Shown here: one piece after another, positions 3,852 through 37,196 of the stretch | Position numbering within the stretch: the stretch's first letter is position 1 | Layout of the letters: each line of letters begins with the position of its first letter | Source: an uncultured Chloroflexia bacterium | Lineage (GTDB): Bacteria; Chloroflexota; Anaerolineae; Anaerolineales; E44-bin32 | Length of the DNA stretch: 64,000 bases | Direction of reading: 5' to 3' | Assembly: GCA_963727915.1 (NCBI GenBank) | Contig: CAVSID010000001.1 | Location: 124,954 to 188,953, forward strand | Translations under genes and position numbers: made by a program | Notes under the pieces: generated by a model | What the model was told of the DNA's origin: nothing | Seen by the model: only the letters and a program-made list of their open reading frames with translations | The model's database searches: none

Positions 3852-3857
3852 GGCCGC

Positions 3858-4190: not shown

Positions 4191-4307
4191 CCGTTGACGT
4201 TCTTCGCGCTCTTTGTCAAGCTGTCGGTAGCGATAGGATTTCGCGTCCCATGAGCTTCCCCTTCGGGCTACCTTCCTGCCCTGGACTTGGATGTGAATTC
4301 GTTCAGA

Positions 4308-12175: not shown

Positions 12176-12281
12176 CGGAGTGGAAGGGAGGCCCTTCCAC
12201 GATAGCGCCGGCCCTCACGGGCACCGGCACCTCCTATTCTAACGGATTGGCGCTTCCACCTGAATCACCCCTTTGTCTCCC

Positions 12282-13065: not shown

Positions 13066-13730
13066 TTCTTCAGTCCCACTACCTTGATTGATCCACGCAG
13101 GGATTTGTAGTGCTTGTTCATGCGGATGATCACGGCCGTCAGGCCTTCGATAACCACGGCGTTGTCGAGTCCGCCAGCGAAGTAGCCGTTCATCCCGGCG
13201 CCCTCTGCCAGTTTGATGACTTCCTCGGCAGCGGCCTCATCATCGGCGCAGATCAACACGTCCACATCGATGGGTTCTTCGGGTTTCTTCTTTAACACGA
13301 AGGCCGGCGCGGTTTGGAAGCCCGCCACGACGCGCACTCCCTCCCCGAGGATCTCCTGGGCGGTGCGTGCCGCCGACGGCGGCTCCGGCGGCCGGGCGTC
13401 GCGAAAGTCCACCCGGGCCGTCGTATCCACCAGAATCTTGCCCTGCAGATCATCCTTGAGACTCTTCAGGGCGGCGTCGTGGGCCGTGTAGTCCACGGTC
13501 AAGATGGCGATATCTGCTTTGCGAGCTGCATCCGCATTCTCCATCCCCTGGATGGTATCGAGGCCGAGCTCTTCATTGAGTTGGGCGGCCACCCCTTGCG
13601 CCTTCTCAGCCTGCCGAGATCCGATCAGGACCTGGTATCCGGCTTTGGCCCAACGGCTCGCCAGCGCCGGGCCCGACTGCCCGGTGCCCCCCAAGACGGC
13701 CAGGGTCAGGATCAAACGTTCGTCAGTCAT
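13062..13730 (-). CDS. npdG: NADPH-dependent F420 reductase (F420:NADP+ oxidoreductase)
   Basis: LAVLGGTGQSGPALASRWAKAGYQVLIGSR...ADIAILTV match the Rossmann N-terminus and length of NpdG/Fno. There is a 27-nt gap after ssnA and a 4-nt GTGA overlap with cofE. Confidence 0.8.
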   Translation of the reverse strand: MTDERLILTLAVLGGTGQSGPALASRWAKAGYQVLIGSRQAEKAQGVAAQLNEELGLDTIQGMENADAARKADIAILTVDYTAHDAALKSLKDDLQGKILVDTTARVDFRDARPPEPPSAARTAQEILGEGVRVVAGFQTAPAFVLKKKPEEPIDVDVLICADDEAAAEEVIKLAEGAGMNGYFAGGLDNAVVIEGLTAVIIRMNKHYKSLRGSIKVVGLKK

Positions 13731-13757
13731 GTACCCTCCAGAATCTCGTCCGACGCC

Positions 13758-20274: not shown

Positions 20275-21735
20275 TCAGGCGGCCTCGACATCCGCATTGA
20301 AGGCGTCGATAAGCTCATCAATCGCCTCAACTTGTCCCTGGAACCTTGTCCAATAATCCGGCGCGTACCACTGGTCGGTGATCTCGTCGAAAGTCCGACC
20401 CTGCTGTTCGACCCATGTGTAGTACTTGAGGTTGTGCACCCTCCGCCGATCCGTGTAGCGGAGTTCTTCCATGTGGTCGGTGGTGATCCCGGCCAGATAT
20501 TGTCCATGGGCGGCGGCCGCTTCCCGCTCGCCGAACTCACCGCTCTCGGCATGCATTTCTTTCAAACGACTCTGGTACAGGTCCATCGAGTCGGTCAGGA
20601 CGGTCAGGACGACGTCGTCCGGTCCCAGCTCGTAGTATTTGGCGAACTTGATGGCCATGGTCATATTTGCGATACCCGAGAAACCGAGAAGACCCAATTG
20701 GGACACGACACTCTCTGGGACGCCGGTTTCCGCAAGGTAGGCTCGGCCTGCGCTTTCGTTGAACAGGCGCGCCAGGTTGACCACGGTGGTGTCATCGATA
20801 TCCACCACCAGATCGGTGTTCTTGACATTGTGAATCCAAGGCACATGCTTGTCGCCAATTCCTTCGATGCGATGCGCCCCAAAGCCATTCTCGAGCAGCG
20901 TTGGGCACTGCCATGCTTCCCCGGCGGCGACCTTGCTGGTGGGGAACACTTGCTTCAGGTAGTCGGCACAGGCAATCGTGCCTGCGGAGCCGGTCGTGAG
21001 GACCACGCCTCGATACGTCCCGCTGTCCCCCAGTTCTCGTTCGAGCACCTCTTGCATAGCGTGGCCGGTGATCTCGTAGTGCCAGAGATAATTGCCGAAT
21101 TCCTCGAACTGGTTGAAGATCATCAGATTCTGGCCCGAGGCGCGCAGTTCCTTGCACTTGTCGAAGATTTCCTTGACGTTGGACTCGCTTCCCGGCGTCT
21201 TGATGGTCTCCCCGGCAATGTTGGCCAACCAGTCGAACCTTTCCTTGCTCATCCCTTCAGGCAGGATGGCAATCGACTCGGTGGCCAGCAGCGCCAAGTC
21301 ATATGCCCCGCCGCGGCAGTAGTTGCCGGTCGAAGGCCAGACCGCCTTCTGCTCGGTGGGATCGAACTGCCCGGTCACCAATCTCGGCACCAGGCAGCCG
21401 AAAGCGGCTCCGACCTTGTGCGCGCCCGTTGGGAACCACTTGCCTACCAGGGCAATCACCCTCGCTTCAACGCCGGTGAGGCTGGACGGCAGTTCGAGGT
21501 AGTTGACCCCCCCGAAGCCGCCGCCGGATTCCACCGGCTCGTTCTTCCAGGTGATTCGGAACAAGTTGCGGGGATCGACGTCCCATAGGCCAACTTTGGC
21601 CAGCTGCGCCCTGATCTCGTCCGGAACAAGGGCGGGGTTCTTCATTTGGGCAAAGGTGGGGATGCGAATACCGCGCTCTTTGGCGCGCTGGATGGCATGC
21701 TTGCGACGAGCGTTGTCGATGGTGAGGTCGATCAT
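20275..21735 (-). CDS. Fold-type-II (Trp-synthase-beta/cysteine-synthase-like) PLP-dependent enzyme of the long 'lyase/thiolase' type. Substrate unknown.
   Basis: Intact ORF. I chose the ATG at 21735 (AGGAG lies 10 nt upstream, just after the GT2 stop). WFPTGAHKVGAAFG contains the likely PLP lysine, and VVLTTGSAGT is a glycine-rich phosphate loop. Confidence 0.75.
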   Translation of the reverse strand: MIDLTIDNARRKHAIQRAKERGIRIPTFAQMKNPALVPDEIRAQLAKVGLWDVDPRNLFRITWKNEPVESGGGFGGVNYLELPSSLTGVEARVIALVGKWFPTGAHKVGAAFGCLVPRLVTGQFDPTEQKAVWPSTGNYCRGGAYDLALLATESIAILPEGMSKERFDWLANIAGETIKTPGSESNVKEIFDKCKELRASGQNLMIFNQFEEFGNYLWHYEITGHAMQEVLERELGDSGTYRGVVLTTGSAGTIACADYLKQVFPTSKVAAGEAWQCPTLLENGFGAHRIEGIGDKHVPWIHNVKNTDLVVDIDDTTVVNLARLFNESAGRAYLAETGVPESVVSQLGLLGFSGIANMTMAIKFAKYYELGPDDVVLTVLTDSMDLYQSRLKEMHAESGEFGEREAAAAHGQYLAGITTDHMEELRYTDRRRVHNLKYYTWVEQQGRTFDEITDQWYAPDYWTRFQGQVEAIDELIDAFNADVEAA

Positions 21736-21742
21736 TCGAGGG

Positions 21743-22711
21743 TTACTCCTGTGAGTTGGTTTGGTCGGGCCCGTCATCGGGTCCATGGCTGACGATGTAA
21801 AGCGGACGCCCTTTTGCCTCGTCGTACAGACGGCCGATGTATTCACCCAGAATGCCGAGAGAAATCAACTGCACGCCACCCAAGAAGAGCACAGCCAGCA
21901 GCGTGGAGGCCTGGCCGAAGAATGCCTGATTTCCCATCAGGCGAAGGATGATTACAACTGGGATGGCGACAGCACTGATTCCGGCACTGACGAACCCGAG
22001 ATAGGTGGCAATCTGCAGGGGGAAATACGAGAAACCGGTGACCGCATTCAGTGCGAAGCGCACCATCTTGCTGAAGGTGTACTTGGTTTCCCCGGCAAAC
22101 CGCGCCTCCCGAGTGTATGGCACGCCAATCTGCCGGAAACCCACCCACGCGGCCATGCCCCTCAGAAAGCGGTGGCGCTCCCGCATCTGCTTGAGCGCCG
22201 CCACAACTTTTCGGTCGATCAGGCGAAAATCACCGGTGTCGAGGGGAATGTCAACATCCGTGATGCGGTAGATGAGACGATAGAAGACAGAAGCCGTCAC
22301 GCGTTTGAACCACGTTTCGCCCTTGCGTTCGGCGCGAACGGCGAACACGACTTCATAGCCCTGGCGCCACTTGTCTACCAGCTGGGGAATGACCTCAGGC
22401 GGGTCCTGCAAGTCAGCATCAATGATCACCACCGCCTGGCCACGGCTGTGGTCGAGCCCGGCTGTTACAGCGATCTGGTGTCCGAAGTTGCGCGAAAAGA
22501 TGATGGGGCGTACGTGAGGGTCTTGCCGGCCAAGATCGAGGATCCGCTGGGTGGACATGTCACGCGAACCATCGTCCACCATGAGCAGCTCCCAAGGCTG
22601 GCCGAGCGCTTCCATGACGGCCCCGATTCTCCGATGAAGCTCTTCAACCGAATCAGCTTCATTGAAGACGGGCACGATGATCGAGAAGGTGACAGCGCTT
22701 GGATCGCTCAT
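21743..22711 (-). CDS. Family-2 glycosyltransferase, polyprenyl-phosphate sugar synthase type (GtrB/ArnC/DPM1-like) with 2 C-terminal TM helices
   Basis: FSIIVPVFNEADSV...LLMVDDGSRD...VIIDADLQDPPE gives the DXD-type GT2 core, and the C-terminus is hydrophobic. Confidence 0.85.
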   Translation of the reverse strand: MSDPSAVTFSIIVPVFNEADSVEELHRRIGAVMEALGQPWELLMVDDGSRDMSTQRILDLGRQDPHVRPIIFSRNFGHQIAVTAGLDHSRGQAVVIIDADLQDPPEVIPQLVDKWRQGYEVVFAVRAERKGETWFKRVTASVFYRLIYRITDVDIPLDTGDFRLIDRKVVAALKQMRERHRFLRGMAAWVGFRQIGVPYTREARFAGETKYTFSKMVRFALNAVTGFSYFPLQIATYLGFVSAGISAVAIPVVIILRLMGNQAFFGQASTLLAVLFLGGVQLISLGILGEYIGRLYDEAKGRPLYIVSHGPDDGPDQTNSQE

Positions 22712-22727: not shown

Positions 22728-23996
22728 TCATGCGCCTTCCACAACCTCCCGCAAGGCATCCAGACTGGGCTCGATCACCTGCGCTTCGCCGGTGGCTTGC
22801 ATGGCAGCGTCGACGTCTTTCAGCCCACTCCCCGTGACCATCACCACGACGGTCTCGTCTCTTCCCAGCAGCCCAATGTCGACGGCTTTGACCAGCCCGG
22901 CCTGCGCCGTGGCGCCGGCCGGCTCGGCGAACACTGCGGCTTGCTGTCCCAACTGGCGCATGGCGGCCAAAATGTCTTCATCCTCAACATGCACATAGGC
23001 GCCCCCTGTGTCACGGACGGCCTGCAACGCTCGATAGCCATCTCTCGGCAGGTCGACCGAGATGCTGTCAGCCAGCGTGTCGGCCCGGACGGGTTCGATC
23101 GTATCCGACCCGGCCGTGAAGGCATTGTAGATCGCCGAAGAGCCGCTGGCCTGAACCCCGATCAATCTCGGGATCTCTTCAATCCAGCCCAAGGCATGCA
23201 GATCCTGGAAACCCTTGTGGAGGCCGCTGATGATATTGCCGTCACCTACCGACACCAACACAACCTGCGGGGCCGTCCAACTTGCCGGGCCGCCCGGGCT
23301 GGCTGCCACGCCGAGTTGTTCGCAGATCTCAAAAGCAGCCGTTTTCTTCCCCTCGGCTGTAAATGGATTGTATCCGGTGTTGCGACAATACCAGCCGAAG
23401 GCGTCAGAAGCTTTGATGGAGAGATCAAAGGCATCATCGTAGGTGCCGTCCACGAGGATGACACGTGCCCCAAACATCAGAAGCTGTGCCACCTTGGCCC
23501 TGGGCGCCGAGCGCGGCGCGAGGATCACGGTTGGCATGCCGGCTGCCGCCCCCATGCCAGCCAGGGCAGCACCGGCATTGCCGGTGGAAGCCGTCACCAC
23601 CAACGAAGCGTGGATCTCCTCAGCTCGACGGACGACCACGGCGCTGGCCCGATCCTTGAAGGAGGCCGTCGGGTTGCGGCCGTCGTCCTTGACCCACAGG
23701 TGGGGCATTTCCAGGGCGAGCCGCAACCCGGGTGGCCCTAGCAGCGGCGTCATCCCGACCGACCTCAGTGCCGTTCCAAAATGACCCGGATCCGATACCG
23801 GCAGCAAGGGAAGATAGCGCCAAATGGACCTCTCGTTGCTGCCAAGAATCTCACACGATGAACACGACGAACTTATCCGCTTGAAATCAATCTGAACATC
23901 GAGATTGGAACCGTCAGTCGGGCAGGTGTAGAAGATGTCTGCCGGCGGATAGGTCCGGCCACATGCCGGGCAGTGATAGCCCAGGTAGGTGCTCAT
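22728..23996 (-). CDS. Threonine-synthase-like fold-type-II PLP enzyme with N-terminal zinc ribbon
   Basis: YHCPACGRTY...YTCPTDGSNLDV, then NPTASFKDRAS (PLP lysine motif) and TASTGNAGAALA. Intact ORF. Confidence 0.75.
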   Translation of the reverse strand: MSTYLGYHCPACGRTYPPADIFYTCPTDGSNLDVQIDFKRISSSCSSCEILGSNERSIWRYLPLLPVSDPGHFGTALRSVGMTPLLGPPGLRLALEMPHLWVKDDGRNPTASFKDRASAVVVRRAEEIHASLVVTASTGNAGAALAGMGAAAGMPTVILAPRSAPRAKVAQLLMFGARVILVDGTYDDAFDLSIKASDAFGWYCRNTGYNPFTAEGKKTAAFEICEQLGVAASPGGPASWTAPQVVLVSVGDGNIISGLHKGFQDLHALGWIEEIPRLIGVQASGSSAIYNAFTAGSDTIEPVRADTLADSISVDLPRDGYRALQAVRDTGGAYVHVEDEDILAAMRQLGQQAAVFAEPAGATAQAGLVKAVDIGLLGRDETVVVMVTGSGLKDVDAAMQATGEAQVIEPSLDALREVVEGA

Positions 23997-24138
23997 CGCT
24001 CACCTCGGTTGCCGGCATCGGCCTTCGGTTGCCTGAGACGTGTCTGCATAGGAGAACCGACTTCCCTCCGTGGCCCACGTGAAGGGCGAGGCCGGTTACA
24101 TCGATATTCATACGCCAAACAGGACAAGTGGGTCTCCC

Positions 24139-25137
24139 CTATTCTTGCTCGAACGGGATGCCGAGGGACCCCGGAGGGGAGGCGCGGAGCGAACGCAAAA
24201 TGCCCGTGATCAACCGTCGGGTCGAATCGGGAAGCGCCGCCAGCGTTCGCTGGACCCACTCGGTGCTGCCAATGTTGACCAGCAAGAGCGCCAGGATCAT
24301 CAGCGGGAAGGGCGCCACTTGAAGTACCTGAGATGGGACCCCCGGGAGGCTCGGCTGCAATACGATCCCCAGCCACTGCACCAAGGCAAACAGGTACACT
24401 CCAAAGGCCGCACGGATGGGGTCCCACGCCCCAAAGATCGCAATCGCAAGGGCAATCCAGCCAATCCCGTCCAAGCCGGTTTGGGTCCCCATCCAGCCTG
24501 ATTTGATATTCAAAGTGTAGGCCGGGCCCGCCAAACCCACCAATGCCCCGCCAAGAATCGTGTACAGATAGCGCAGCCGGTTGACATTAGCGCCCCGCAC
24601 GAAAGCAGCCGCTGGCCGTTCGCCGATCCCGCGTAGCATTAAGCCTGGACGTGTCCGGTACAGGTACAACCACAGCAGGAAGATGAAGACAATGCTCATA
24701 TAAATCAGGATGTTCTGCCGGAAGAATAGGACGCCAATGACCGGGATATCTTTCAGTAAGGGGATGGGCAGAGCCGGCAGCGAGGGACCTGAGAGGTTCA
24801 TGTACGGCACGCCCAAGAAGTAGGAGAGATCGCGGCCAAGAAGGGTCAGCACGAAACCGACCGCCACCTGAGATAAGTGAAGCTCTATGCTGGTGAAGGC
24901 GACGATGAGGGCCACAAGGCCGCCAATGGCCATCCCTGCCAGAAAACCCAGTACCAGGCTCCCGGTGCTGTAAGCCACAGCAAAACCACCCATGGCCGAA
25001 AGGAGAATCGTGCCGTTCAGCGAAAGGTTGATCACACCTGCCCGCTCGGTGATCGTCTCGCCGAGCACAGCGAACATCATCGGCATGGCGGCAGCAACCA
25101 CGCCCGCTAGGCCGACCAAGATCGAGTTGGTGGTCAT
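24139..25137 (-). CDS. ABC transporter permease (BMP/nucleoside-type uptake system)
   Basis: 332 aa and polytopic. AVLGETITERAGVINLSLNGTILL is typical of BPD_transp_2 permeases that partner BMP lipoproteins. Confidence 0.85.
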   Translation of the reverse strand: MTTNSILVGLAGVVAAAMPMMFAVLGETITERAGVINLSLNGTILLSAMGGFAVAYSTGSLVLGFLAGMAIGGLVALIVAFTSIELHLSQVAVGFVLTLLGRDLSYFLGVPYMNLSGPSLPALPIPLLKDIPVIGVLFFRQNILIYMSIVFIFLLWLYLYRTRPGLMLRGIGERPAAAFVRGANVNRLRYLYTILGGALVGLAGPAYTLNIKSGWMGTQTGLDGIGWIALAIAIFGAWDPIRAAFGVYLFALVQWLGIVLQPSLPGVPSQVLQVAPFPLMILALLLVNIGSTEWVQRTLAALPDSTRRLITGILRSLRASPPGSLGIPFEQE

Positions 25138-25145
25138 TCCGTCTC

Positions 25146-26184
25146 CTAAGGCCGCTTAAGAATCCGCTGGCGGGCACCTTCACCGATCAGCAAGACCAGA
25201 ACAAGTAGGTCCTGCAAAACCCCTGCAAAGGACGCATCGAGCTTGTAAACAATCTGCAGCTGCACACTACCGATATTCATTGCAGCGAACAGAAACGCCA
25301 CCGGCGCGGCCCAGAACGCCTGATAGTTGATCAACATGGCCACAAGCAGACCCAGGAAACCGTAGCCGTTTGAAATGTTGGGCAGGAGGCGGTGGTAGAC
25401 GCTGGTGACCTGTATCGCTCCCGCTAGGCCGACGATGGCTCCACACAGTAGAAAGGCCAACATGCTGTACTGCCAGGTCGGCACGCCCAACAGGAAAGCG
25501 GCGCGTATGTTCTTGCCCACCGCCTTCAGGCGCAGACCGAAGTGCGTGCCGCGCAGCAAGAAAAAGACCATCACCATGACGGCCAAGGAACCACCCAGTG
25601 CCCAAAGGCTGAGTTCGGTGTGGGGCAGTGCTGGCAGCCAAAGGCGTTCGGGGAAAGGCTGGGTTCCCGACATCGACCCAACGCCGGGCCGCTTCCACGG
25701 CCCAAAGACAAGGTAGATGGTCAGCGCCGTGGCGACGAAATCCAGACCCAGGCCACCGAAAATCTCATTGACGCCGCCGAAGACCTTGAGCGCGCCGGCA
25801 AGAGCCGCCCAGAGCGCCCCGCCCACCATCCCAGCCACGATCCCCAGGATGATTATCAAGGCAGGCGACAGGGAGCTATCCTGCAGAAGGCGAAGCACCC
25901 CCGTAGCGAAAATCGAACCCAGAACCATCTGGCCTTCCACACCGATGTTCCACAGCCCAGCCGCAAAGGTGATCAGCACGCCGGCTGTGGTCAACAGCAG
26001 GGGAGACCAGGTGATCAGGATTCCATAGATGTCGCCCATGGAGCCGAAGGCGCCTTGCACAATGCTGAGATATACCTGGAGCGGCGGCGCACCGGCAGCC
26101 AGCAAGATGAGGGTTGTGATCAAGAGCGCCAACAAGAGGGCCCCGAGTTGAAAACCAAGAATTCACCCAGGTGCGATTAGTCAT
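25146..26184 (-). CDS. ABC transporter permease (second subunit). The N-terminus is probably disrupted by a frame break near 26160.
   Basis: The track ORF 25146..26135 is polytopic. The ATG at 26184 overlaps the ATPase stop (caATGActaat) and reads MTNRTWV before slipping into the permease frame (ILGFQLGALLLALLITT). Confidence 0.75.
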
Positions 26185-27689
26185 TGGCCCTTGTCCGATG
26201 TCAGTTCCGACCACCCGCTGCCACCGATCAGCTCGCCGAGCTTGTCGGTGGTCAGTTTCCCCGCATCCAACGGTGGAGTCATATCGCCGCTGAAGAACAC
26301 GAGCACGCGGTCACTGTACTGCAGGATTTCCTCTAGATCCGACGAAACGAAGATGATCGACGTGCCCTGCCGACAGCGCTCTTTGAGCTTGCTCCAAATG
26401 TAGATCGCCAATTCGATATCCAGCCCACGGGTGGGGTGCTCGAGGATCAGAAGGTTCAGCGGATCTCTCAGAAGCGCCAGCAACGCCCGTTGTTGATTTC
26501 CCCCCGAAAGCAACTCGACAGGGCTGGCCGGCGTGCCACGAATATCGTACTCCTTAATTCGTTTCTCCGCGAGCTGCGAGCCCTTGTCCCAATTCACAAA
26601 GAAGCCCTCAGCCTCTTCGGCCAGGATGAAATGCTCCGTCAGGGACAGACCAGGAACCATGCCCTCTTCCAGGCGCGATGCCGGAAGGAAGGCTACGCCC
26701 TGGTCCTTGTAGGCGTGGTAGGAGCGACCGGTCATGTCCACGCCATTGATCAAGATCCGGCCACCAACGGTCCGCGCCAGGCCCGAGATATCACGCAGAA
26801 ACACGCCTTGGCCGCTCCCTGCCATGCCAGCCAAGCCGATGACCTCTCCCCGATGCACATCTAGGGTGATTTCCCGCAGAGCTATATGGTAGTCCTCGGC
26901 GGAAACTCCGCGCAGGGAGAGGGTTACTTCTCCCTCCATGTTCGAGACACGATCTCCGACCGAAATGGTCTTCCCAAACATCATCTCCACGAGCTGCTTG
27001 GTAATGTAGGGGGCCTTGGTCTCGCCCACAAGATGGCCCTGGCGCAGCACGGCCACTCGGTCGCACAATCCTTCAACGTCCTCCAGCTTGTGCGAAACGA
27101 AGAGGATGGTTTTCCCCTGAGATGCCAACAAGCGAAGGGCAGCGAATAGCGCCTCCTTCTGCGCGCCGCTGATGCCGGTGGTCGGCTCGTCGAAGATCAG
27201 CGCTTTGGCCCCCAGCCAGATCAGGCGCAGAATCTCAAGCTGCTGGCGCTCCCCGACCGTGAGCGTATCGACATAGGCTTCCGGATCGAGCGAGAAAGAG
27301 AACTGATCCGCCAGCTTCTTGAGCTCGATGCGCGCCTCGGCCTGGCCGGTGAGAAAGTGCCCCTCCTGTCCGAGGACGAAGTTGTCGATCAGGCGCATCG
27401 GCGGGAAGTCCAACGGATCCTGGTGGAGCATGCCCACCCCATGATGGATGGCATCGGCCGGGGATGCGATGGTCACCGATTGTCCGTCAAGCAGGATCTC
27501 TCCCTGGTCGGCTCGAATGAAGCCGGAGAGAATCTTCATCAAGGTGCTCTTGCCCGCCCCGTTTTCCCCGAGCAAGCCCATTACAGTTCCGGCGGGGATA
27601 GACAAGGTGATGCCCGCATTGGCGTGCACCGCGCCGAAAGACTTGTGTATGTCTCGAAGTTCAACCTTCATGGATGAACTCCCATCCAT
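26181..27689 (-). CDS. ABC transporter ATP-binding protein with duplicated ATPase domains
   Basis: There are two Walker A sites (GENGAGKST and GMAGSGQG), an LSVGERQ-type signature (LTVGERQQ) and LSGGNQQ. An alternative start at 27671 (MKVELRDI) has the better SD. Confidence 0.9.
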   Translation of the reverse strand: MDGSSSMKVELRDIHKSFGAVHANAGITLSIPAGTVMGLLGENGAGKSTLMKILSGFIRADQGEILLDGQSVTIASPADAIHHGVGMLHQDPLDFPPMRLIDNFVLGQEGHFLTGQAEARIELKKLADQFSFSLDPEAYVDTLTVGERQQLEILRLIWLGAKALIFDEPTTGISGAQKEALFAALRLLASQGKTILFVSHKLEDVEGLCDRVAVLRQGHLVGETKAPYITKQLVEMMFGKTISVGDRVSNMEGEVTLSLRGVSAEDYHIALREITLDVHRGEVIGLAGMAGSGQGVFLRDISGLARTVGGRILINGVDMTGRSYHAYKDQGVAFLPASRLEEGMVPGLSLTEHFILAEEAEGFFVNWDKGSQLAEKRIKEYDIRGTPASPVELLSGGNQQRALLALLRDPLNLLILEHPTRGLDIELAIYIWSKLKERCRQGTSIIFVSSDLEEILQYSDRVLVFFSGDMTPPLDAGKLTTDKLGELIGGSGWSELTSDKGQ

Positions 27690-27720
27690 GCGCCTCGAAG
27701 GCTCGCCCTAGAGGCAGGAA

Positions 27721-27749
27721 TCGGGGGGAAGGCCAGGCCTTCCCCCCGA
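27721..27749 (-). other. Perfect GC-rich intercistronic hairpin between the SBP gene and the ATPase gene
   Basis: tcggggggaaggcc-a-ggccttccccccga is a 14+14 nt inverted repeat seen directly in the sequence. Confidence 0.6.
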
Positions 27750-27760
27750 TTGACGGTTGT

Positions 27761-29051
27761 TTACTGAGAAACGCTCTGCCCTTGCATACCCTCGAGCAGC
27801 TGGGGCAGGTACCAGACTTGCTGATCGGTGGCGGCCACACCATCTGTCAGGTAGGGCGTCCCGTCCTGCAGATTGATCGGGCCGGTCCACAGGTCCAAGC
27901 CACCGGCCAGTTCCGAGATGAACCCGTCCAACTGAGTGGAGGCGTCGGCCGACAAGCCGGCGCCCTTGGTGAAGCCCACGCGCGCTGGTGTCCGGGTTGT
28001 TGATGTCGGCCCAATCCGGACCATTCCACTGGAAGCCTTCCTGCCACGTGCCGTCGGCGGCGGATTTGACCGCCGTCAGGAAGGCGGGGCCCCAGTTGAA
28101 GTAAGGCACGCCCAGACAGATGTCAGGCGCCACGTTGCAGTTGTCCTTGTAATCGTAGGCGAGGGCAAACGTGGACTGGCCAGCGTCGTGCATCTTCTTG
28201 GCCTCAACCAAGGCTTCCGTCGTATCGATGCCGGAGATGACCACGTCAAAACCGCTGTTGTAGAAGTCGTCAGCAACCTGAGTTGGGTCGGAGGTGACAC
28301 CGGGGATGTTGAACCAGAAGCCGATCCAGGTAACCTTGAACTGCAGGTTGGCTGCATCCTTGTTAAGGACGTGGGTCCAGCAGTACTTGGCGCCGAGGTA
28401 GGCCGAAGAGGCCAGCCGGCGCGTCTCGTCGTTGATCAGGGGTCCAAGATAGCCGATCTGGCCGGTTTGGGTTGTGAGCGCAGCGGCGCATCCGGCGATC
28501 ATCTTGCCATATTCCATGCGGCCCATGATATCGATCTGGTTCGGCGAGGCCTGGTAGTTCTTGCCATCCTTCCATGTCCAGTCATCTGATACACCGATGA
28601 CATCGATAGTGGGATTGGCCTGGGCGAACTTGAGCGCCTCATCCTTCATATCATCCGAGTTGAAGATGACAAGCTGGGCGCCTTGCTGCACCAGTTGCTG
28701 GGCCAATTGCGAGGCCGTCTGTCCGGGGTAGGAAGGAGAACCGGAATACACGTTCTCAAGGTAGACCATCTTCGAGCCTGGCAGGTTCTGTTCGACATAT
28801 TGCCCGCCCTCAAAGGTCGCCTGGCTCCACCCCTGGTCATTCTTGGCACCGACCAAGAGCATGCCGAATGTGAACGGCTGCTCAGGTGCCATCGTCTCGG
28901 CGGGGGCCGACGTCGCCTCAGACGCCATAGTCGCTTCAGGCGCTGTCGTTGCCGGGGCCTGGGTTGGCGCTGCCGCCGGGCCGCAGGCCGCCGCCAGTAA
29001 GGCGACGATCATCAACCCTCCGAGGACCCGCCATTTCATGGTGCTACTCAT
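27761..29051 (-). CDS. BMP-family ABC substrate-binding lipoprotein (nucleoside/purine-type). Frame break near 27982.
   Basis: AAGGAGGAG lies upstream of the ATG at 29051. The signal sequence is MSSTMKWRVLGGLMIVALLAAACG. The body is FTFGMLLVGAKNDQGWSQA...GIDTTEAL. After ...NNPDTSA the true C-terminus VGFTKGAGLSADAS...LLEGMQGQSVSQ lies in ORF 27761..28024. Confidence 0.9.
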
Positions 29052-29150: not shown

Positions 29151-30111
29151 CTAGGGGACAATTCGTGTGCCGGTTTCTCCCTGCAAAGCCCGCCGGATGT
29201 TGGGCGGGTCGGTGATCAGAGCTTCCTTGCCCCCGCGTTCGAGGTAGCCGATGACCGCCCGGATCTTGGGCTCCATACTCCCTTTGGCAAAGTGACCCTC
29301 GGCCAGATAACCCTTGGCCTCGGCCAAGCGTCATCCTGTCCAACTTCTTCTCGTCGGGCTTGTTGTAGTTCAAGGCGACTTGCTCGACGGCCGTCGAGAT
29401 CAGAAACAGATCGGCGCCGATACTGGAAGCCATCAATGATGAGGCGAAGTCCTTGTCAATGACCGCCTCCACACCCTTGAGGGCACCCTCTTCGTCGGCG
29501 ACGACAGGGATCCCGCCGCCGCCCACGCTGACCACGATGAAGCCGGCCTTGATCAGCGTCTCGATCGCGTCTCGCTCCACGATTCGCTTGGGGGTCGGCG
29601 ATGGAACCACCCTCCGCCACCCGCGACCGGCGTCCTCGACGACTGCCCAGCCTTCGTCCTCAGCGTGCTGCTTGGCGGTGTTTTCGTCCATGAAGGTGCC
29701 GATCGGCTTGCTCGGATTCTGGAAGGCGGGGTCTTCTTTGTCGACCTCCACCTGGGTAACCACAGTGGCTGCCTGGCGATTCAGACCGCGGGCTTTGAAC
29801 TCGTTGTGCAGCGCCCGCTGGAACATGTAGCCGATGGCGCCTTGCGTGTCGGCCCCGCAGTAATCCAGCGGAACCGGATGAAGCTCACCCATCGACAGCT
29901 CCGACCGCCGGAGGATAAAGCCTACCTGCGGCCCGTTCCCATGCGTGACCACCACATCCCAGCCGGCTTCGATCATATCGGCCAGATGGGACATGGATTC
30001 ACAAGCCGCTGCGTACTGATCGGGGATCGTCTGGTGGGTCTTGTCCTTGATCAGGGAATTCCCCCCGACCGCCACCACGGCCAGCTTTCGATCGTTCTTT
30101 GTTTGATCCAT
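29151..30111 (-). CDS. arcC: Carbamate kinase (frame break near 29325)
   Basis: LAVVAVGGNSL...VVTHGNGPQVG...DYCGADTQGAIGY...GGGGIPV...EAVIDKDFASS. After KKLDRMTL the next frame reads AEAKGYLAEGHFAKGSMEPKIRAVIGYLERGGKEALIT...TRIVP with a stop at 29151. GAGGAG lies upstream of the ATG at 30111. Confidence 0.9.
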
Positions 30112-30119
30112 GGGTCTCC

Positions 30120-31101
30120 TCAAGCCATCGTCAAGGCCATCACGGCCTTTTGGGCATGCAGTCGGTTTTCGGCTTCGTCGAACACAACGCTGTGGGGGCC
30201 ATCGATGACGCCATCGGTGACTTCGATGTTGCGGTCGGCCGGAAGCGGGTGCATGTAGATGGCATCTGACTTGGCCAAAGCCATCTTCTTCTCATCCGTG
30301 ATCCAGTCCTTGTACCGATCCTGGATCTCCTTGCCCTTCTCCGAGTCCGTCGTCGTCAACAGCGGCCCCCAGGACTTGGCATAGACCACGTCGGCGTCTT
30401 TGAAGGCCTCTTCCATATTGTCGGTTACTTCGAAGCCTGTGCCAAACCGCTTGGCCTGCTCCCGTGCCTGGTCCATGATGTCCGGCATCAGCTTGAACTC
30501 CGGCGGATGGGCGAGAGTGATGTCCAGGCCGAAGCGCGGCATTTGCAGGATCAAAGATTGAGGCACCGAGATCGGCTTCAGATACGACGCAGCGTAGGCC
30601 CACGAGACGACCATCTTCTTCTTGCGCAGATCGCGGCCCTTCTTTTCGATGATTGTCATCAGATCGGCCAGGATCTGATGGGGGTGGTAGAAGTCACACT
30701 GCATGTTGAGCACGGGCACACGTGAGGCTTCAGCCACAAGGTTCAGGTAGCGGTTGCCGATCCCCCAGTCGACGTGCCGGATGGCGATGCCGTCGAAATA
30801 GCGGCCGAAGATCTCGCCCATCTCCTTCTCGGTGTCACCGTGGGCGATCTGGGTTGTCCGCGAATTCGATAAATGCCGCGTGGCCGCCCAACTGCGCCAT
30901 GCCGGCTTCGAATGAACCCCGCGTGCGTGTGCTGCTGAAGAAGAACAGCATCGCCAGCACCTTGTCGCGCAGATAAGCGTGCGGCTCACCCAATGCCCGT
31001 TTGCGCTTGAGGTCAAACGCCACGTCGAGGACAGTCTCCACCTCTTCGCGACTGAAATCGAGGTCGCTGATCAGATCGCGACCGCGCAGATTGGTTTGCA
31101 T
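30120..31101 (-). CDS. ygeW: YgeW-type (knotted) carbamoyltransferase family protein. Frame break near 30855.
   Basis: The N-terminal ORF 30835..31101 has FFSSTRTRGSFEAGMAQLGG. The C-terminal ORF 30120..31016 has QIAHGDTEKE, VLNMQCDFYHPHQILADL, VSWAYAASYLKPISVPQS, RFGLDITLAHPPEF and MEEAFKDADVVYAKSWGP. These match E. coli YgeW blocks (SQIAHGETV, LVNLQCDIDHPTQ, WAYSPSYGKPLSVPQ, RFGMDVTLAHPEGY, MEEAFKDADIVYPKSWAP), recalled from memory. Confidence 0.8.
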
Positions 31102-31161
31102 GCTTTCCTCCTGCTTCCGACTTGAGCCCCGGAGATTGCACCCCAGGGCCGTCGCCGTCCG

Positions 31162-32112
31162 CTACTCCATCATCCCCAGGACCAATGCCAACAAGGACAT
31201 GCGCATGACGACGCCGTTGAACGCCTCCACCCAGTAGCGGGCGTGGCGGGTGGCGTCAACCTCTGGCAGGAGCTCGTCCATCCGAGGCAGCGAATGCAGG
31301 ATGATCGAGTCCGGCTTGGCCTGCTTCATGACGTCCAGAGTGACCTGGTAGTTGGCCGGTGTGAGGCCGACGTCGCCGGATCGCTCGTCGCGCGCCTTGG
31401 TGTAATCCGGCTGCACAACCGGCTCCATGTAGATCACATCGGCGTCAGCGATGGCGTCCTTGATGTGATCGACTTCCCGATAGCGTAGGTTGCTTTTGTC
31501 GATCTCGGCCTTGAACTCGTCGGTGAGCGACATCTCGGGGGGCGAGATATAGGTGGCTTCAATGTCGAATTGCGACATGGCGTAGCTCATGGAATGCATG
31601 GTCCGCATGCGCATGTCACCCACCAACAGGAAATGCAAGCCATCCAGCGTGCCCCGCTCCTTGTAGATGGTGTACATATCGGTCAGGACCTGGGTGGGAT
31701 GTTCTCCCCACCCATCGCCAGCATTGATGACGGGAACGCTCGCCCAGCGGGCGGCCTCAGCCGGCGCCCCCTGCTGGAAGTGGCGCATTACGATCACATC
31801 ACCATAGAACTCCAGCATATGGACGGTGTCCTTGATCAACTCCTGGTAGAAGTCGCCGGCGCGTGTGTTCTTGACATCTGCGAAACCGAGCACATGGCCT
31901 CCCAGACGATGCATGGCGGCTTCGTGGGCCATCCGGGTCCGGGTGCTGGGCTGGTAGAAGGCCGTCAGCATGATCTTTTGGGCCAACAGATCGGTGTTGC
32001 GTCGATCGCGGGCAAACGGCGCCAACTCGTCGGCCACCTCGAATACCCGGAAGTACTCTTCACGTTCAAATTCCTTGAGCGACAGGATGTCGCGGCCAGC
32101 AAAACTGCGCAT
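31162..32112 (-). CDS. Aspartate-carbamoyltransferase-like (PyrB-like) paralogue, probably with a different second substrate
   Basis: The intact 316-aa ORF has STRTR, MHRLGG, VMRH, GEHPTQ, GDMRMRTMHS and HSLPRMDEL. However, it reads VIYMEPVVQPDY where E. coli PyrB has ILYMTRVQKERL (Arg229/Gln231), and it has no GKKGE lysines. Confidence 0.75.
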   Translation of the reverse strand: MRSFAGRDILSLKEFEREEYFRVFEVADELAPFARDRRNTDLLAQKIMLTAFYQPSTRTRMAHEAAMHRLGGHVLGFADVKNTRAGDFYQELIKDTVHMLEFYGDVIVMRHFQQGAPAEAARWASVPVINAGDGWGEHPTQVLTDMYTIYKERGTLDGLHFLLVGDMRMRTMHSMSYAMSQFDIEATYISPPEMSLTDEFKAEIDKSNLRYREVDHIKDAIADADVIYMEPVVQPDYTKARDERSGDVGLTPANYQVTLDVMKQAKPDSIILHSLPRMDELLPEVDATRHARYWVEAFNGVVMRMSLLALVLGMME

Positions 32113-32224: not shown

Positions 32225-32973
32225 TCACCTCGCTTGTTCCACCCGGCGTACCACATGAAAGCGGAAAGTGCCGGGCAAGAAATAACTCCGCGAATGGTCA
32301 ACAACTCGACCGGATAAGTCGTACAGGCAGGCTTCCAGATACAACAGTACGTCGCCGCGCTGAATGCCGAGGCTCCTGGCGATCTTCGGGGTGGCGGTGG
32401 TGGCTGTGATCTCCGCCTGCGAGCGATCGAGCTCCGGTTCGCCACGCTTTTGCAGGATCTCGAGCACAGAACCGCCAAAGTTGTCCTGAAGCGATTCGGC
32501 AGAAAGAATGTCCTGCGGGACGCTGTCCACAAGGTAGGCGACTGGCCGGCCTTTGGCGACAATCACGCGGGAGACGTCGACCACGTGCTCCCCTTGCGGG
32601 GTCTGGAGCGGGCTCCCATCCGGCCCTTCGACCCGACGCACGCTGACTTCCAGGTCTTTCATCTCGACCGTCATCCCCATGCGGGATGCCAGAGCCTGGA
32701 TGCTGGTGAGAACCTCCAGGCCCGTCTCAATCACCTGCGGCGGCTCTACGACATACGTTCCGACACCCTGTCGTCGAACCACGCGCCCCTTGGCTTCGAG
32801 CGGCCGCATGGCTTCCCGAAGGGTGGCGCGGGACACTCCCAGCTTCTTGGCCAGATCAGGCTCGGACGGAAGGAAGGTGCCGGGGGAAAGCCCGGCCAGC
32901 ATGGCCTCCAAGGCATCGGCTGTCTTCTGGTACAGGGGCCGGGTCCGCTTGACTTCGCTGTTCTGCGTGCCAA
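32225..32973 (-). CDS. GntR-family transcriptional regulator, HutC subfamily (wHTH + UTRA). The N-terminal frame is uncertain.
   Basis: RPLYQKTADALEAMLAGLSPGTFLPSEPDLAKKLGVSRATLREAMRPLEAKGRVVRRQGVGTYV, then a UTRA-like C-terminus. The only SD-preceded start (TTG at 32973, after GAGGAG) is one frame off, which implies another indel near 32950. Confidence 0.8.
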
Positions 32974-32974
32974 G

Positions 32975-34782
32975 CTAATTCTCCTCTTCAGCCACAACCG
33001 GGATGACGGCGAAGGTCTCCACATCCACCAGGCCGCGATCAGAAATGCGCAATTCGGGGATCACCACCAGGGCCAGCAAGCTGAGCTGCATGTTGGCGTT
33101 GTTCAGGCTGCAACCGCAGGCCTTCATGGCCGCCAGGACCAATTCGGCCTTGTCGGCCACGACCTCGGCGCGCTCGTCGGACATCAAGCCGGCAATGGGC
33201 AGCTCGACCAGTGCCTGGACTATCGCCATCGCGCACGACGATTTGTCCGCCGCCGATACGGGCCAATTCGTTGGCGGCCACCGCCATGTCTTCATCGCTC
33301 GTGCCCACAATCAGCATATGGTGGGAGTCATGCGCCACGGTGGACCCAAAGGCACAGGGCAGGTTGATCCCGAAGCCCTGCACGAAGCCCACCTGCACTT
33401 CGCCGGTTCCACGATGGCGTTCAACAAGCGCCACCTTGGCAACATCTTGATCCTTGTCGATCAGCACGTTGCCCTGCGCCACCGGCAGGTGCAGGCGCAG
33501 ATGACGAGTCGGCGCCTGGTTCTCGATGACGCCGATGACATTCGACTTCGACCTTGTCGTGGCCCCGGGTGCGGCACAGCGAAATCGTCCGCCGTCAACT
33601 GGCCGCCCGAGCCGGACCGAAGCCTTGACCTCGGCCGGGTAGCTGAACGGGGGCACATCCAGACAGCAGCTCGCCCCTGGCTGGCAGCCATCCGGCCCCG
33701 AGCGATGACTTGATCTGCCCGGAAGTCATGCAGGTCACGGACCAGTACGATGTCCGCATAGCGGCCGGGAGCGATCTGGCCGATGTCGCGTGCCAGCCCA
33801 AAATGCTCGGCCGGATTGAGCGTTGCCATCTGCAGGGCGACCATCGGATCGAGGCCCTGATCGATCGCGTGCCGCACGACGCGATCCATATGGCCGTCGT
33901 GCACCAGGGTGCCGGAGTGAGAATCGTCGGTCACCAGGATGAAGTGCCGCGGATCCAGCCCCATGCTCGGTGATCGCCGGGAGCTGGCTGGCGACGTCAT
34001 ACCAGGCCGAGCCCAGACGAAGCATGGCTTTCATCCCCTGCCGGACCCTGGCCACGGCGTCCTCGAGCCGCGTTGCCTTCATGATCGTCTTCCGGGCCCC
34101 CGGCGACGTAGCCATGGAACGGGAGCCCGAGATCGAGCGCGGCGTAGTGGCCCCCAATGACCTTGCCCGCCTGCCGCGTGCGCGCCATCTCGGCGTGCAT
34201 CTTCTCGTCGCTGTTGAACACGCCGGGGAAGTTCATCATCTCGCCCAGCCCAATGATCCCGGGCCAGGTCATGGCCTCAGCCACATCGTCCGGCCCCAAC
34301 ACAGCGCCCGGCGTTTCAAGGCCGGGCGCGGACGGGACACAGGAGGGCATTTCAACCCAGACATGGACCGGCTGGAGGGCGGCTTCATCCACCATCATCC
34401 GCACGCCCTTCAGACCGAACACATTGGCGATTTCGTGCGGGTCAACGAACATCGCCGTCGTCCCATGCGGCAGGACGGCCCGCACGAACTCCGTCACAGT
34501 CACCATGCCCAATTCGACGTGCATGTGCCCGTCGATCAGGCCGGGGACCAGATACCGGCCATCGGCTTCGACGATCCGCGTGTCGGGGCCCAGGCAATGC
34601 CGGCTGCCTTGGCCGACGTAGGCGATGCGCTCGCCCTTGATGGCGACGTCAATGTCATCGATGATTTCGCCCGATTGGACACACACCCAATTCCCCTCAC
34701 GAACAATCACATCGGCCGGTGTGCGCCCCATGGCGACATCGGTCAATTCACGCGAGATTTCGCTCCAATCCCGGTCCGGCAT
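32975..34782 (-). CDS. ade: Adenine deaminase (amidohydrolase). At least 5 frame breaks.
   Basis: Fragments 33997..34782 (VPGLIDGHMHVE...VDPHEIANV), 33735..34157 (TRLEDAVARVRQGMKAMLRLGSA), 33461..34000 (FILVTDDSHSGTLVHDGHMD...ALQMATLNPAEHFGL), 33039..33656 (VALVERHRGTGEVQVGFVQGFG...GSTVAHDSHHMLIVGTSDEDMAVAAN) and 32975..33310 (LPIAGLMSDE...) line up in the order expected for Ade. Confidence 0.85.
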
Positions 34783-36202
34783 GCAAACACCTCGTGAAAA
34801 CCAAGGACAAAGCGGCCGAGATCAGTCGCCCACGCACAGAGCTCGAGGCCGCCCGATTGTGTTTTTCGATCAGGATGTCCATGTCAACTCCGGTCACCCG
34901 GCCCTGCTCGACGACCGGTCTGTCCATGGACGTAGTTGAATGCCACGTTGGTTGGCGAACAAAACACCGCCGCCGCCACGGGATCGTGCAGGCCCCCGGC
35001 ATAGGCGATTTGACTCAGATCCAGACCGATGAAATCGGCGCACATGCCCGGCGCCAACGCCCCGATGTCCTCTCGCCCAAGCACGGCCGCCCCGCCAAGT
35101 GTGGCCATCTCCAGCACCTGCCGGGCGGTCAGCATGCCCTCCCCCGGATCGGTCTCGGGTGATATCGCCGAGCCGACGCGCGAAAGGAGCATCGCCTGGC
35201 GTGCTTCCGCCAGCAGATGCGAACTGTCGTTGCTGGCCGAGCCATCCACCCCCAGCCCGACATCAACGCCGGCCCGCCGATAGCGCCTGACCGGCGCCAG
35301 CCCACTCGCCAGCCGCATGTTGGAGCCCGGGCAGTGGGCCACCCCGCTTCCGACGTCTGCCATGCGGCCTACTTCTCCGGGTTGATGTGCACCGCATGGG
35401 CGAACCACACGTCATCGCCCGCCCAATCCAGCGCCTCCACAAAGCCAGCGGCCGGTGGCCGAAGGCCTCCAGGCAGAAGGACTCTTCGTCCAAGGTCTCA
35501 GCCAGGTGCGTGTGCAAGTGCACGCCAGCCGACCTGGCCAAGTGCGGCCGATTGGCGCATCAGGTCAGGGGTCACCGAGAACGGTGAGCACGGCGCCACC
35601 ACCACCTGGACCATGGCGCCCGGTTCGGGTTGGTGGTAGCTCTCGATCACCCGCTGCGTGTCGCGCAGGATTTCGTCTTCATCTTCCACCACTCGATCCG
35701 GCGGCAGGCCGCCCTGGCTCTCGCCCAGACTCATCGACCCACGCGAGGCGTGCAGCCTCAGACCGATGTCCTGGGCAGCAAGGATTTCATCGTCCAACCG
35801 GCAGTCATTGGGGAAGATGTACAGGTGATCCGAGGCGGTCGTGCAGCCGGAGAGCGCCAGCTCTGCCAAGCCAAGCTGGGTGGAAAGGCGGATGTGTTCC
35901 GCCGACATCCGCGCCCAGATCGGGTACAGCGTCTTGAGCCAGCCGAAGAGGTTGGAATCCTGGGCTGCCGGGACAGCCCGCGTGAGAGTTTGATACAGAT
36001 GGTGATGGGTGTTAATCAGGCCGGGCAACACCAGGTGGCCCTGGGCGTCGACCACAACATCCGCCACGCCGGGCAGTTGGTCGGACGGGCCGACCTGCTC
36101 GATCCACCCATCCCTGGCGAATAGCCCACCGTTGGCGATCTCCCGACGCTCCTCGTCCATGGTAACCATGACCGAGGCGTTGCGGACCAGAAGCGTAGGC
36201 AT
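34748..36202 (-). CDS. 8-oxoguanine-deaminase-like amidohydrolase (guanine/chlorohydrolase group). At least 4 frame breaks. The true stop may be at 34822.
   Basis: Fragment 35498..36202 reads MPTLLVRNASVMVTMDEERREIANGGLFARDGWIEQVG...PGLINTHHHLYQTLTR...LFGWLKTLYPIW...HASRGSMSLG. Fragment 35263..35541 reads GVHLHTHLAETLDEE. Fragment 34884..35408 reads VAHCPGSNMRLASG...GLGVDGSASND. A C-terminal piece lies in 34748..35002. Confidence 0.75.
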
Positions 36203-36268: not shown

Positions 36269-37196
36269 CAACCTACATATGACATTCGTCCCCATCTCGG
36301 CGGGGCAGATCTCAGCTTACGGAGGCGCGCTGCGGCGGCTTTCAGGGTGCTCTGAAGCAGCATGGCAATCGTCATTGGGCCGACGCCGCCAGGCACGGGC
36401 GTGATCGCCCCGGCCACTTCCAGGGCCTCGTCGAAGGCCACATCGCCCGCCAGGCGATAGCCCTTCTCGCGGGTCGGATCGTCGACGTGGTTGATCCCCA
36501 CATCGATCACAAACGCACCGGGTTTGATCCAATCGCCACGGATCATCTCCCCTCGCCCGATGGCGGCGATCAGCACATCCGCCCGTCGGCACACGGCGGG
36601 AAGGTCCTGCGTACGGGAGTGGCAGATCGTGACCGTGGCATTTTCGCGCACCAGCAGAAGGGACACGGGCATGCCCACGATATTGGAGCGACCGACGACG
36701 ACGGCATTGGCGCCCTCCAACTTGAGCTCCAGCGTGCCTGAGCAGTTCGATGCAGCCCGCCGGGGTGCAAGGAACGAAGGACGGCTCCCGGCCCTTCTGC
36801 GCCAACCGGCCGAGGTTGACCGGATGGAACCCGTCCACATCCTTGTCCACGCTGACCGTATTCAGCACCGCCTCTTCGTCGTTGCCCGGCGGGAGGGGAA
36901 GCTGGACCAAGATGCCGTTGCACGCGCTGATCAGCGTTCAGATCTCGGATGAGCTGAATGATCTTCTCTTGCGGCGTGTCTGCCGGAAGCTCATGATGGA
37001 AGGACACGATCCCGGCTTCTTCGCACGCCTTGCGTTTGGAGCGCACATAACTGTGCGAGGCTGGGTCATCGCCCACCAGCACCGTTGCCAAACCGGGCTT
37101 GGGCATGCCTTTGGCCTCGAGCGCCGCTACCTGGCGGGCCACATCGGCTCGAATCTCAGCCGCCAGGGCCGTTCCATCGATCAATTTCGCAGTCAT
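36268..37196 (-). CDS. folD: Bifunctional 5,10-methylene-THF dehydrogenase / 5,10-methenyl-THF cyclohydrolase FolD (frame breaks near 36918 and 36729)
   Basis: [19 protein letters not shown]...[30 protein letters not shown], then GILVQLPLP...[12 protein letters not shown]...[11 protein letters not shown], then [18 protein letters not shown]...[15 protein letters not shown]. These lie in three successive frames. Confidence 0.9.

Follow-up and report, generated by a model that had tools for sequence, protein, structure and literature searches.

In the reductive pathway of urate degradation, as described in 2025 in two studies and a commentary, XdhD reduces urate to 2,8-dioxopurine, YgfK dearomatises 2,8-dioxopurine, and ring opening by SsnA and HyuA leads to 2,3-diureidopropanoate, a compound that bears two ureido groups. 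This compound is the substrate of the carbamoyltransferase YgeW, which frees carbamoyl phosphate for conversion to ATP by carbamate kinase; the second ureido group is removed hydrolytically by YgeY, an M20-family enzyme, and YgeX converts 2,3-diaminopropanoate to pyruvate. The published pathway, which is being pursued for gout therapy, gains energy from one of the two ureido groups. In this article, we analyze a stretch of 64,000 nucleotides (hereafter the window, to which all coordinates refer) of contig CAVSID010000001.1 in assembly GCA_963727915.1, in which two divergent carbamoyltransferase genes, one PyrB-like and one YgeW-like, are found in tandem with a carbamate kinase gene (arcC). We propose that, in this member of the Anaerolineales, the triad may be the terminal part of a reductive uric-acid/purine (2,8-dioxopurine) pathway, in which energy is conserved. 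For the PyrB-like enzyme we lean, if only modestly, towards a role as the phosphorolytic counterpart of YgeY, a case of analogous displacement that would provide a second ATP per purine.

The closest described relatives of the PyrB-like protein are paralogues of aspartate carbamoyltransferase (ATCase) that Barba et al. (2013, PMC4016543) named "pseudo-ATCases" and divided into three groups. Group 1 includes Rxyl_2847, a ureidoglycine carbamoyltransferase (UGTCase) acting on allantoate and phosphate, and group 3 is marine. Group 2 was known from Nocardioides sp. JS614 only; its motif is H[ST]LP, it adjoins a ygeW homologue with xdhABC and hyuA after it, and no function was assigned to it. The window protein most likely belongs to group 2, because it contains HSLP and because its 68%-identical Nocardioides homologue (locus L034) is found in the group 2 arrangement, in the order pseudo-ATCase (pATC), YgeW-like, YgfM/XdhD-like and HyuA. 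The likeness extends to the ATCase label of these ATCase-branch paralogues, the missing RxQ motif, the adjacent ygeW homologue, and the presence of xdh and hyuA nearby. In contrast to the single organism of that paper, the genes described here are found in five phyla, with carbamate kinase alongside and in alternation with YgeY. The paper also gives "GX[SC]" at E. coli positions 230-232, versus P-V-V (or E-P-V) here, which is maybe an alignment difference, the comparison being made with the paper's description and the Nocardioides locus L034 and not with the JS614 sequence. Thus both the family and its association with a ygeW homologue had been published before, whereas the functional assignment and the alternation with YgeY appear to be new; we found no mention in the literature of a second, ATCase-like transferase in the reductive urate pathway.

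The PyrB-like protein and its family

The PyrB-like protein is 36% identical to E. coli PyrB (BLASTP) and 41% identical to the Pyrococcus abyssi ATCase (structural alignment), and its AlphaFold2 (AF2) model, with a predicted TM-score (pTM) of 0.82, has its best PDB matches among ATCases (TM ~0.8). It retains all the carbamoyl-phosphate motifs (STRTR, VMRH, HPTQ and HSLPR) as well as the ATCase residues S52, T53, R54, T55, R105, H134, Q137 and L267, plus R167. Residues were compared between 36 family members and 43 canonical ATCases (L043-L085, ordinary archaeal ATCases which, owing to the generic pattern of our genome scan, made up about half of its loci) with MAFFT, and by HMMER alignment to ATCases in the PDB. 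Both procedures place YMEPVVQPDY opposite YMTRVQKERL of E. coli PyrB, and in this respect, as with the carbamoyl-phosphate motifs, they agree with a preliminary description of the locus made from the sequence alone.

The changes E50Q, S80R, K84Y, G85Q, T228E, R229P, R234D and P266S relative to ATCase are invariant in the 36 family members. The residues at E50, S80 and K84 are Q54, R84 and Y89 in window numbering (36/36), HSLPR replaces the HPLP of ATCase in every member, and the position of Q231 is occupied by V or I. The Lys83/Lys84 loop had been described as lacking; the lysines are indeed replaced (K83F, K84Y), but the 80s loop itself is present, one residue longer and rewritten (NTRAGDFYQE versus NTSLGKKGE). 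An alternative alignment produced by BLASTP introduces an 8-residue insertion, EPVVQPDY, after which TKARDER is opposite TRVQKER; in the 36 members, R229 then faces K, Q or A, and Q231 faces an invariant Arg. As judged from these comparisons, the RxQxER signature is not restored under either alignment. Equivalents of Arg229 and Gln231 were found under neither, in keeping with the earlier claim that the aspartate-binding residues have been lost. By homology to ATCase, three cationic side chains would be gone from the second-substrate pocket and two acidic ones added. The 240s loop is ~8 residues longer than in ATCase and contains a conserved R241, a possible carboxylate ligand.

Could the protein nevertheless be a genuine biosynthetic ATCase, as the databases annotate it? 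It passes the cutoff of TIGR00670 (254.3 versus 236.95), and the source records name its relatives aspartate carbamoyltransferase (or its catalytic subunit), as is the case for P0002, P0018, P0088 and most JGI entries of the family. We find this hardly credible. NF002032 fails (224 versus a cutoff of 263), as do the remaining ATCase models; RxQxER, K84 and S80 are absent whichever alignment is used; the gene is located in a catabolic operon with carbamate kinase and not in a pyr operon; and Barba et al. saw authentic ATCases beside pseudo-ATCases in the same organisms (PMC4016543). No canonical RxQxER ATCase was found in 1.3 Mb of locus flanks, with 64 kb of the present genome covered. Judging by its active-site residues, the protein is very probably not an ATCase despite its database label, and the family appears to be mislabelled because it clears the TIGR00670 cutoff without the aspartate-binding motif. 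In sum, it resembles PyrB in fold, overall identity, the carbamoyl-phosphate and catalytic residues and R167, and differs from it at K84, R229, Q231, R234, E50 and S80, in the length of the 240s loop, and in its catabolic setting.

A search of 1.84 billion representatives delineates a tight family at ≥64% identity, followed by a gap to relatives at 42-49%. A wide ATCase-like clade shares the 80s loop "[TS]-R-AGD-[FY]Y-x-E" and is without RxQ. Members of that clade (representatives P0128-P0270; L042, L069) have many different 240s motifs, for example MESLK, LMGTT, MNGLT, and IGxNHP with HPGP, and by these motifs the clade looks like a collection of many uncharacterised substrate specificities beyond the three groups of Barba et al.

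The YgeW-type transferase and the alternation with YgeY

The second transferase is 35% identical to E. coli YgeW and shorter (326 versus 396 residues), the alignment having gaps where YgeW carries additional helices at both termini and a long 240s loop. It fails both NCBIfam YgeW models (NF005538, 196.5 versus 453; TIGR03316, 188 versus 500). It has the signature of a knotted carbamoyltransferase, namely the proline-rich loop WAYxxSYxKPxSVPQ and an extended 120s loop; the corresponding insertions relative to ornithine carbamoyltransferase (OTCase), "hvdwgignryl" and "swayaasylkpisvpq", align without gaps to N-acetylornithine carbamoyltransferase (AOTCase) and YgeW, and it is by this sequence signature that we call the protein knotted-type. 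The second-substrate residues proposed for YgeW (YTCase) are kept: Q98, Q160 and K270 in 29 of 29 family members, K203 in 28 and S200 in 27. The HPHQ motif to which the preliminary description drew attention is present, but it represents ordinary variation, 17 of the 29 members having F at the third position, 11 having H and one having T, and we therefore rejected it as a clue to specificity. In its knotted signature, its substrate residues and the carbamate kinase immediately after it, the gene resembles E. coli YgeW (PDB 3Q98) with YqeA, while YgeW has HCLP in place of the HPLP found here. On these residues, we propose that the protein performs the YgeW step and removes the first ureido group from 2,3-diureidopropanoate by phosphorolysis.

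A genome scan with one genome per species yielded 36 family loci (L006-L041) with 63-81% pATC identity, in Chloroflexota, Actinomycetota, Planctomycetota, Verrucomicrobiota and Eisenbacteria. Neighbours were counted in those 15 loci that extend 8 kb or more to either side. A YgeW-like gene is found in all 15 and ArcC in 14, followed by a thrC-like enzyme dependent on pyridoxal phosphate (PLP) in 10, a cysK-like PLP enzyme in 9, Xdh in 7, SsnA in 6, HyuA in 5 and YgeY in 2; YgfK or luciferase-like genes are also frequent. YgeX is a neighbour in 0/15 loci and is absent from all 36. The preliminary description had proposed that both transferases act catabolically together with carbamate kinase, in the direction from ureido compound and phosphate to amine and carbamoyl phosphate. 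The recurrence of the triad across phyla with SsnA, hydantoinase, Xdh and F420- or YgfK-type reductases supports this proposal, and both transferases are very probably catabolic enzymes of purine degradation.

In a reciprocal approach, 80 metagenome loci were fetched with a YgeW-like seed, blind to pATC, of which 42 are informative because their sequence upstream of the YgeW-like gene is 2.6 kb or longer. That stretch, usually its slot nearest the gene, holds pATC only in 22 loci, YgeY only in 13, both in 5 and neither in 2. The M20 protein is a true YgeY (TIGR03526, 450 versus a cutoff of 321.5). In a neighbour-joining tree built from the YgeW-like proteins, the pATC and YgeY states are interspersed, with at least 8 changes each, so that two unrelated enzymes have repeatedly taken each other's place at one position of the operon. 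Where both occur, the order is YgeY, pATC, YgeW-like. A strict replacement of YgeY by pATC was rejected, as a true YgeY is directly upstream of pATC in 7 of the 36 genome loci and in 5 of the 42 metagenome loci. The two enzymes would share a step, and both are encoded upstream of the YgeW-like gene, in most cases right next to it; they differ in fold and in chemistry, since YgeY is hydrolytic and releases NH3 and CO2 without ATP and for pATC we propose phosphorolysis.

The identity of the YgeW-like proteins across phyla is mostly 63-86%, with 51% in a Phycisphaerae locus (L021). The unusual similarity of both pATC and the YgeW-like protein across five phyla suggests that the module moves horizontally as a unit. 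Inserts of 1.7-2.2 kb are found between pATC and the YgeW-like gene in L009 (11022-13142) and L014 (6700-8600) and between the YgeW-like gene and ArcC in L029 (4800-6500); the L009 insert is an open reading frame of 706 residues with no NCBIfam match, and that of L014 includes a Bmp-like binding protein with a weak match to a B6 ABC substrate-binding model. Genes for thrC-like and CysK/SbnA-like PLP enzymes follow ArcC in several phyla, in pATC and YgeY clusters alike (L016, L021, L025, L028-L033, L036-L040, L092, L145, L153 and L165), never with YgeX, and a GT2 glycosyltransferase gene is often located between the two. These PLP enzymes are candidates for replacing YgeX or for acting on albizziin.

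Proposed reactions and competing assignments

In the proposed pathway, adenine deaminase, an 8-oxoguanine-type deaminase, Xdh, an F420-type reductase, SsnA and hydantoinase would convert purines to 2,3-diureidopropanoate, and the YgeW-type enzyme would phosphorolyse one of its ureido groups to give carbamoyl phosphate and mono-ureido-2,3-diaminopropanoate. The PyrB-like enzyme would convert the latter and phosphate to 2,3-diaminopropanoate and a second carbamoyl phosphate, which is the step performed by hydrolysis by YgeY in E. coli. Carbamate kinase would then turn both carbamoyl phosphates into ATP, giving two ATP per purine, not one. The gene identities, the residue changes, the synteny and the alternation with YgeY are shown directly, while we infer which compound is the substrate, in what order the two steps occur, which isomer is cleaved and how much ATP is gained. 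That the two transferases act on two different ureido intermediates had been suggested in the preliminary description, and it gains support from a pathway that is expected to yield 2,3-diureidopropanoate, with exactly two ureido groups. Its statement that neither substrate is known no longer holds for the YgeW type, since that substrate was demonstrated in 2025, and the alternation with YgeY upstream of the YgeW-like gene narrows the choice for pATC.

The group 1 pseudo-ATCase Rxyl_2847, which phosphorolyses another diureido acid, allantoate, provides a precedent for such a reaction. The residue changes, too, are consistent with such a role. The positions of K84, R229, Q231 and R234 would be taken by the neutral or acidic Y89, P231, V233, E230 and D236, with the carbamoyl-phosphate site and Arg167 kept. 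A pocket re-charged in this way would suit a side chain with a free ammonium group, a description that applies to albizziin and to 3-amino-2-ureidopropanoate alike. One of these two candidate reactions has a known counterpart in DPTCase of zwittermicin and viomycin biosynthesis, which interconverts diaminopropionate and carbamoyl phosphate with beta-ureidoalanine (albizziin); in contrast to pATC, DPTCase belongs to the OTCase branch, has the motif HDLP, and is an anabolic enzyme of antibiotic clusters.

The two transferases could also divide the work in the opposite way, the PyrB-like enzyme cutting the 2-ureido group of 2,3-diureidopropanoate, much as ATCase deals with N-carbamoyl-aspartate and UGTCase with allantoate, and the YgeW-like enzyme then cutting the 3-ureido group of albizziin. 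The group 1 pseudo-ATCase acts on allantoate, itself a diureido acid, Arg167, the alpha-carboxylate ligand of ATCase, is kept, enzymes of the OTCase branch carbamoylate the beta-amine of diaminopropionate, and Liu et al. give the 3-ureido group to YgeW. We nevertheless consider this order unlikely. The invariant acidic residues E230 and D236 and the loss of three cations fit better with a cationic mono-ureido substrate than with the diureido acid, which is anionic and has an uncharged side chain, pATC alternates with the second-step enzyme YgeY and not with YgeW, and the YgeW-like protein keeps the substrate residues of YgeW.

Less probable still is that the PyrB-like enzyme acts on allantoate, oxalurate, N-carbamoyl-beta-alanine or N-carbamoyl-aspartate and has a loose link to the YgeW pathway. 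Such a role would be in line with the diversity of pseudo-ATCases, with the co-occurrence of pATC and YgeY in five loci, and with the adjoining hydantoinase, which matches dihydropyrimidinase models too. The UGTCase Rxyl_2847 resembles pATC in being ATCase-like, catabolic and located beside carbamate kinase in a purine-degradation cluster, and it phosphorolyses one ureido group of a diureido acid. However, UGTCase belongs to an oxidative pathway with uricase and allantoinase, and its motifs are HPLA and AIA/AIS/SIA, versus HSLP and EPVV here. Allantoinase- or uricase-type neighbours are absent from all locus maps, and the window hydantoinase fails the allantoinase model (179 versus a cutoff of 358). 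The tight linkage of pATC across phyla to the YgeW-like gene, ArcC and SsnA, together with the alternation with YgeY, also argues against such substrates.

Several observations weigh against the assignment of pATC as a phosphorolytic counterpart of YgeY. The two 2025 papers disagree on the regiochemistry of the YgeW step, so that the substrate of pATC may be either albizziin or 3-amino-2-ureidopropanoate. The Fisher test of pATC versus YgeY occurrence (p = 4e-5) is uncorrected for phylogeny, which leaves the tree of the YgeW-like proteins as the sole phylogeny-aware support. The co-occurrence of both genes in 5 of the 42 loci means that there is no strict replacement and that pATC may catalyze a different step; an ATP-yielding route may possibly operate there beside an irreversible hydrolytic one. 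In genomes with "pATC only" loci, YgeY could be encoded elsewhere. The position of E230, D236 and R241 along the pocket is deduced from homology to ATCase. An AlphaFold model, suggested as a check in the preliminary description, returned an ATCase fold, but with low confidence in the 80s (80-89) and 240s (230-250) loops, and consequently it can neither choose between the two 240s alignments nor place R241, E230 and D236 at the ligand. Finally, two of the three triad genes are frameshifted in the present assembly. For the broader proposal, that environmental bacteria, Chloroflexota and Actinomycetota among them, run a fully phosphorolytic reductive urate pathway in which an ATCase-derived enzyme, re-tooled for cleavage of N-carbamoyl-2,3-diaminopropanoate, repeatedly displaces YgeY and doubles the ATP yield to two per purine, we put the chances at about even.

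Gene content of the window and implications

The genes of the triad and of its surroundings are listed in Table 1. The previously given extents of the triad genes and gaps of 60 nucleotides or less hold, the spacing being 60 nucleotides between the PyrB-like and YgeW-like genes and 8 between the latter and arcC; these extents are those of the repaired genes, both frameshifts having been read through silently. A terminator scan found no terminator-like site on the coding strand between the triad genes, and in the spacer between the GntR gene and pATC a promoter/terminator scan and a search for inverted repeats gave no usable signal. The repaired ArcC passes TIGR00746 (388.2 versus a cutoff of 358.25) and NF009007 (413 versus 266) over its full length.

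Table 1. Features of the window around the carbamoyltransferase triad; model scores are followed by the cutoff
Feature	Position	Strand	Remarks
PyrB-like pseudo-ATCase (pATC)	31162-32112	minus	316 residues, intact; Pfam OTCace_N and OTCace
Short YgeW-type (knotted-type) carbamoyltransferase	30120-31101	minus	~326 residues with one frameshift near 30866 removed; Pfam OTCace_N and OTCace
Carbamate kinase (arcC)	29151-30111	minus	319 residues with one frameshift near 29327 removed; Pfam AA_kinase
GntR/UTRA regulator	32225-32911	minus	directly upstream of the triad; Pfam GntR and UTRA on orthologue; position conserved in many loci
Adenine deaminase	32975-34782	minus	four frameshifts; orthologue TIGR01178 506 vs 472
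8-oxoguanine-deaminase-type amidohydrolase	34829-36202	minus	frameshifted; orthologue NF006055 663 vs 532
Bmp-family ABC transporter	24139-29039	minus	binding protein, ATPase, two permeases; Pfam Bmp, ABC_tran and BPD_transp_2 on orthologues
Threonine-synthase-like PLP enzyme	22728-23999	minus	after the operon; Pfam PALP; TIGR00260 181 vs 167
CysK/SbnA-like PLP enzyme	20275-21846	minus	N-terminal extension; syntenic with the triad across phyla
D-hydantoinase/dihydropyrimidinase (HyuA equivalent)	15523-16939	minus	frameshift near 16680; TIGR02033 408 vs 393
SsnA aminohydrolase	13758-15014	minus	marker of the reductive urate pathway; NF005540 464.5 vs 444
F420 block	8559-13757	minus	Pfam assignments
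F420 block: F420-type NADP oxidoreductase	13062-13757	minus
F420 block: CofD	10186-11226	minus
F420 block: luciferase-like oxidoreductase	8559-9614	minus
Xdh-type molybdoenzyme	1-5876	minus
Xdh: fused FAD/2Fe-2S subunit	4308-5876	minus
Xdh: Mo subunit	1-1995	minus	cut by the window edge
DUF6909 protein	2103-3857	minus	584 residues; between the Xdh Mo and FAD/Fe-S genes; Pfam 736 bits; no NCBIfam match

Of the components of a reductive urate cluster, the window encodes SsnA, the hydantoinase, an Xdh-type enzyme, the YgeW-like protein and ArcC, SsnA being 36% identical to its E. coli counterpart and the hydantoinase, in two pieces, 39-40% identical to E. coli HyuA. YgfK, YgeY and YgeX are absent from the 64-kb window. 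The luciferase-like F420 protein is a candidate substitute for YgfK, and in this the window matches the remark of Li et al. that Chloroflexota SsnA clusters have an F420 luciferase-family enzyme instead of YgfK. Luciferase-like homologues (62-67% identity) are found directly between SsnA and pATC in actinobacterial loci, which would extend this replacement to Actinomycetota, and beside both in L030, L034 and L041. The Bmp-family transporter probably takes up a purine or nucleoside. The threonine-synthase-like enzyme scores only 47 bits on the diaminopropionate ammonia-lyase model. DUF6909 is found neither in the ±10 kb flanks of the 36 genome-scan loci nor on the metagenome-locus maps.

As assembled, the YgeW-like gene consists of two overlapping open reading frames in different frames, with an extra T in GAATTCG near 30866, and arcC is split by a single-base frameshift near 29327. 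Reading the junction in the YgeW-like gene as ..FIEFADNTQIAHGD.. was ruled out; intact relatives give ..FIE/SRTTQIAHGD.. (the slash marks the junction). Frames were located from protein-level high-scoring segment pairs against relatives (tblastn map). At the DNA level, the window is only ~83% identical to L001-L003, with ~107 gap openings in 13 kb, which makes the DNA comparison unfit for counting sequencing errors. There are no contigs on record that encode the window's own PyrB-like protein, and its 97% relative P0002 was used instead. Further frameshifts affect the Bmp binding protein, adenine deaminase (four), folD (two) and gyrA. In the region 22000-49400 single-base frameshifts are frequent (~10 in ~16 kb), examples being those at 30866, 29327, 33200-34100, 36700-36950 and 48134-48558; the contig resembles an unpolished long-read assembly, so its annotation by open reading frames will be fragmented.

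With frameshifts at this density around the operon, the lesions in the YgeW-like gene and arcC could be real and the cluster non-functional. We consider such decay very improbable. In-frame stops and raised substitution are lacking, and protein identity to relatives is 86-98% on both sides of the shifts. In the loci with a 97%-identical PyrB-like protein (L001-L004) the carbamoyltransferase is intact (326-327 residues); the kinase is intact in L002-L004 (319 residues) and split in L001, which is another long contig. Because close relatives are intact and the essential folD and gyrA are broken too, the frameshifts look like assembly indel errors and not like marks of pseudogenes.

If the proposed assignment of pATC as a phosphorolytic counterpart of YgeY is correct, a family that has been without a function since 2013 would gain a specific one, and the reductive urate pathway would have a variant with a doubled ATP yield, of relevance to energy-limited anaerobes and to the engineering of urate-degrading strains. 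An ATCase active site would have been re-charged from cation-rich to acid-containing for a substrate that bears an amino group, and the specificity of pATC, for albizziin or for its 2-ureido isomer, would bear on the order of ureido cleavage in the pathway. The analysis also flags a systematic database error, in that pATC proteins which pass TIGR00670 are widely labelled as aspartate carbamoyltransferase.

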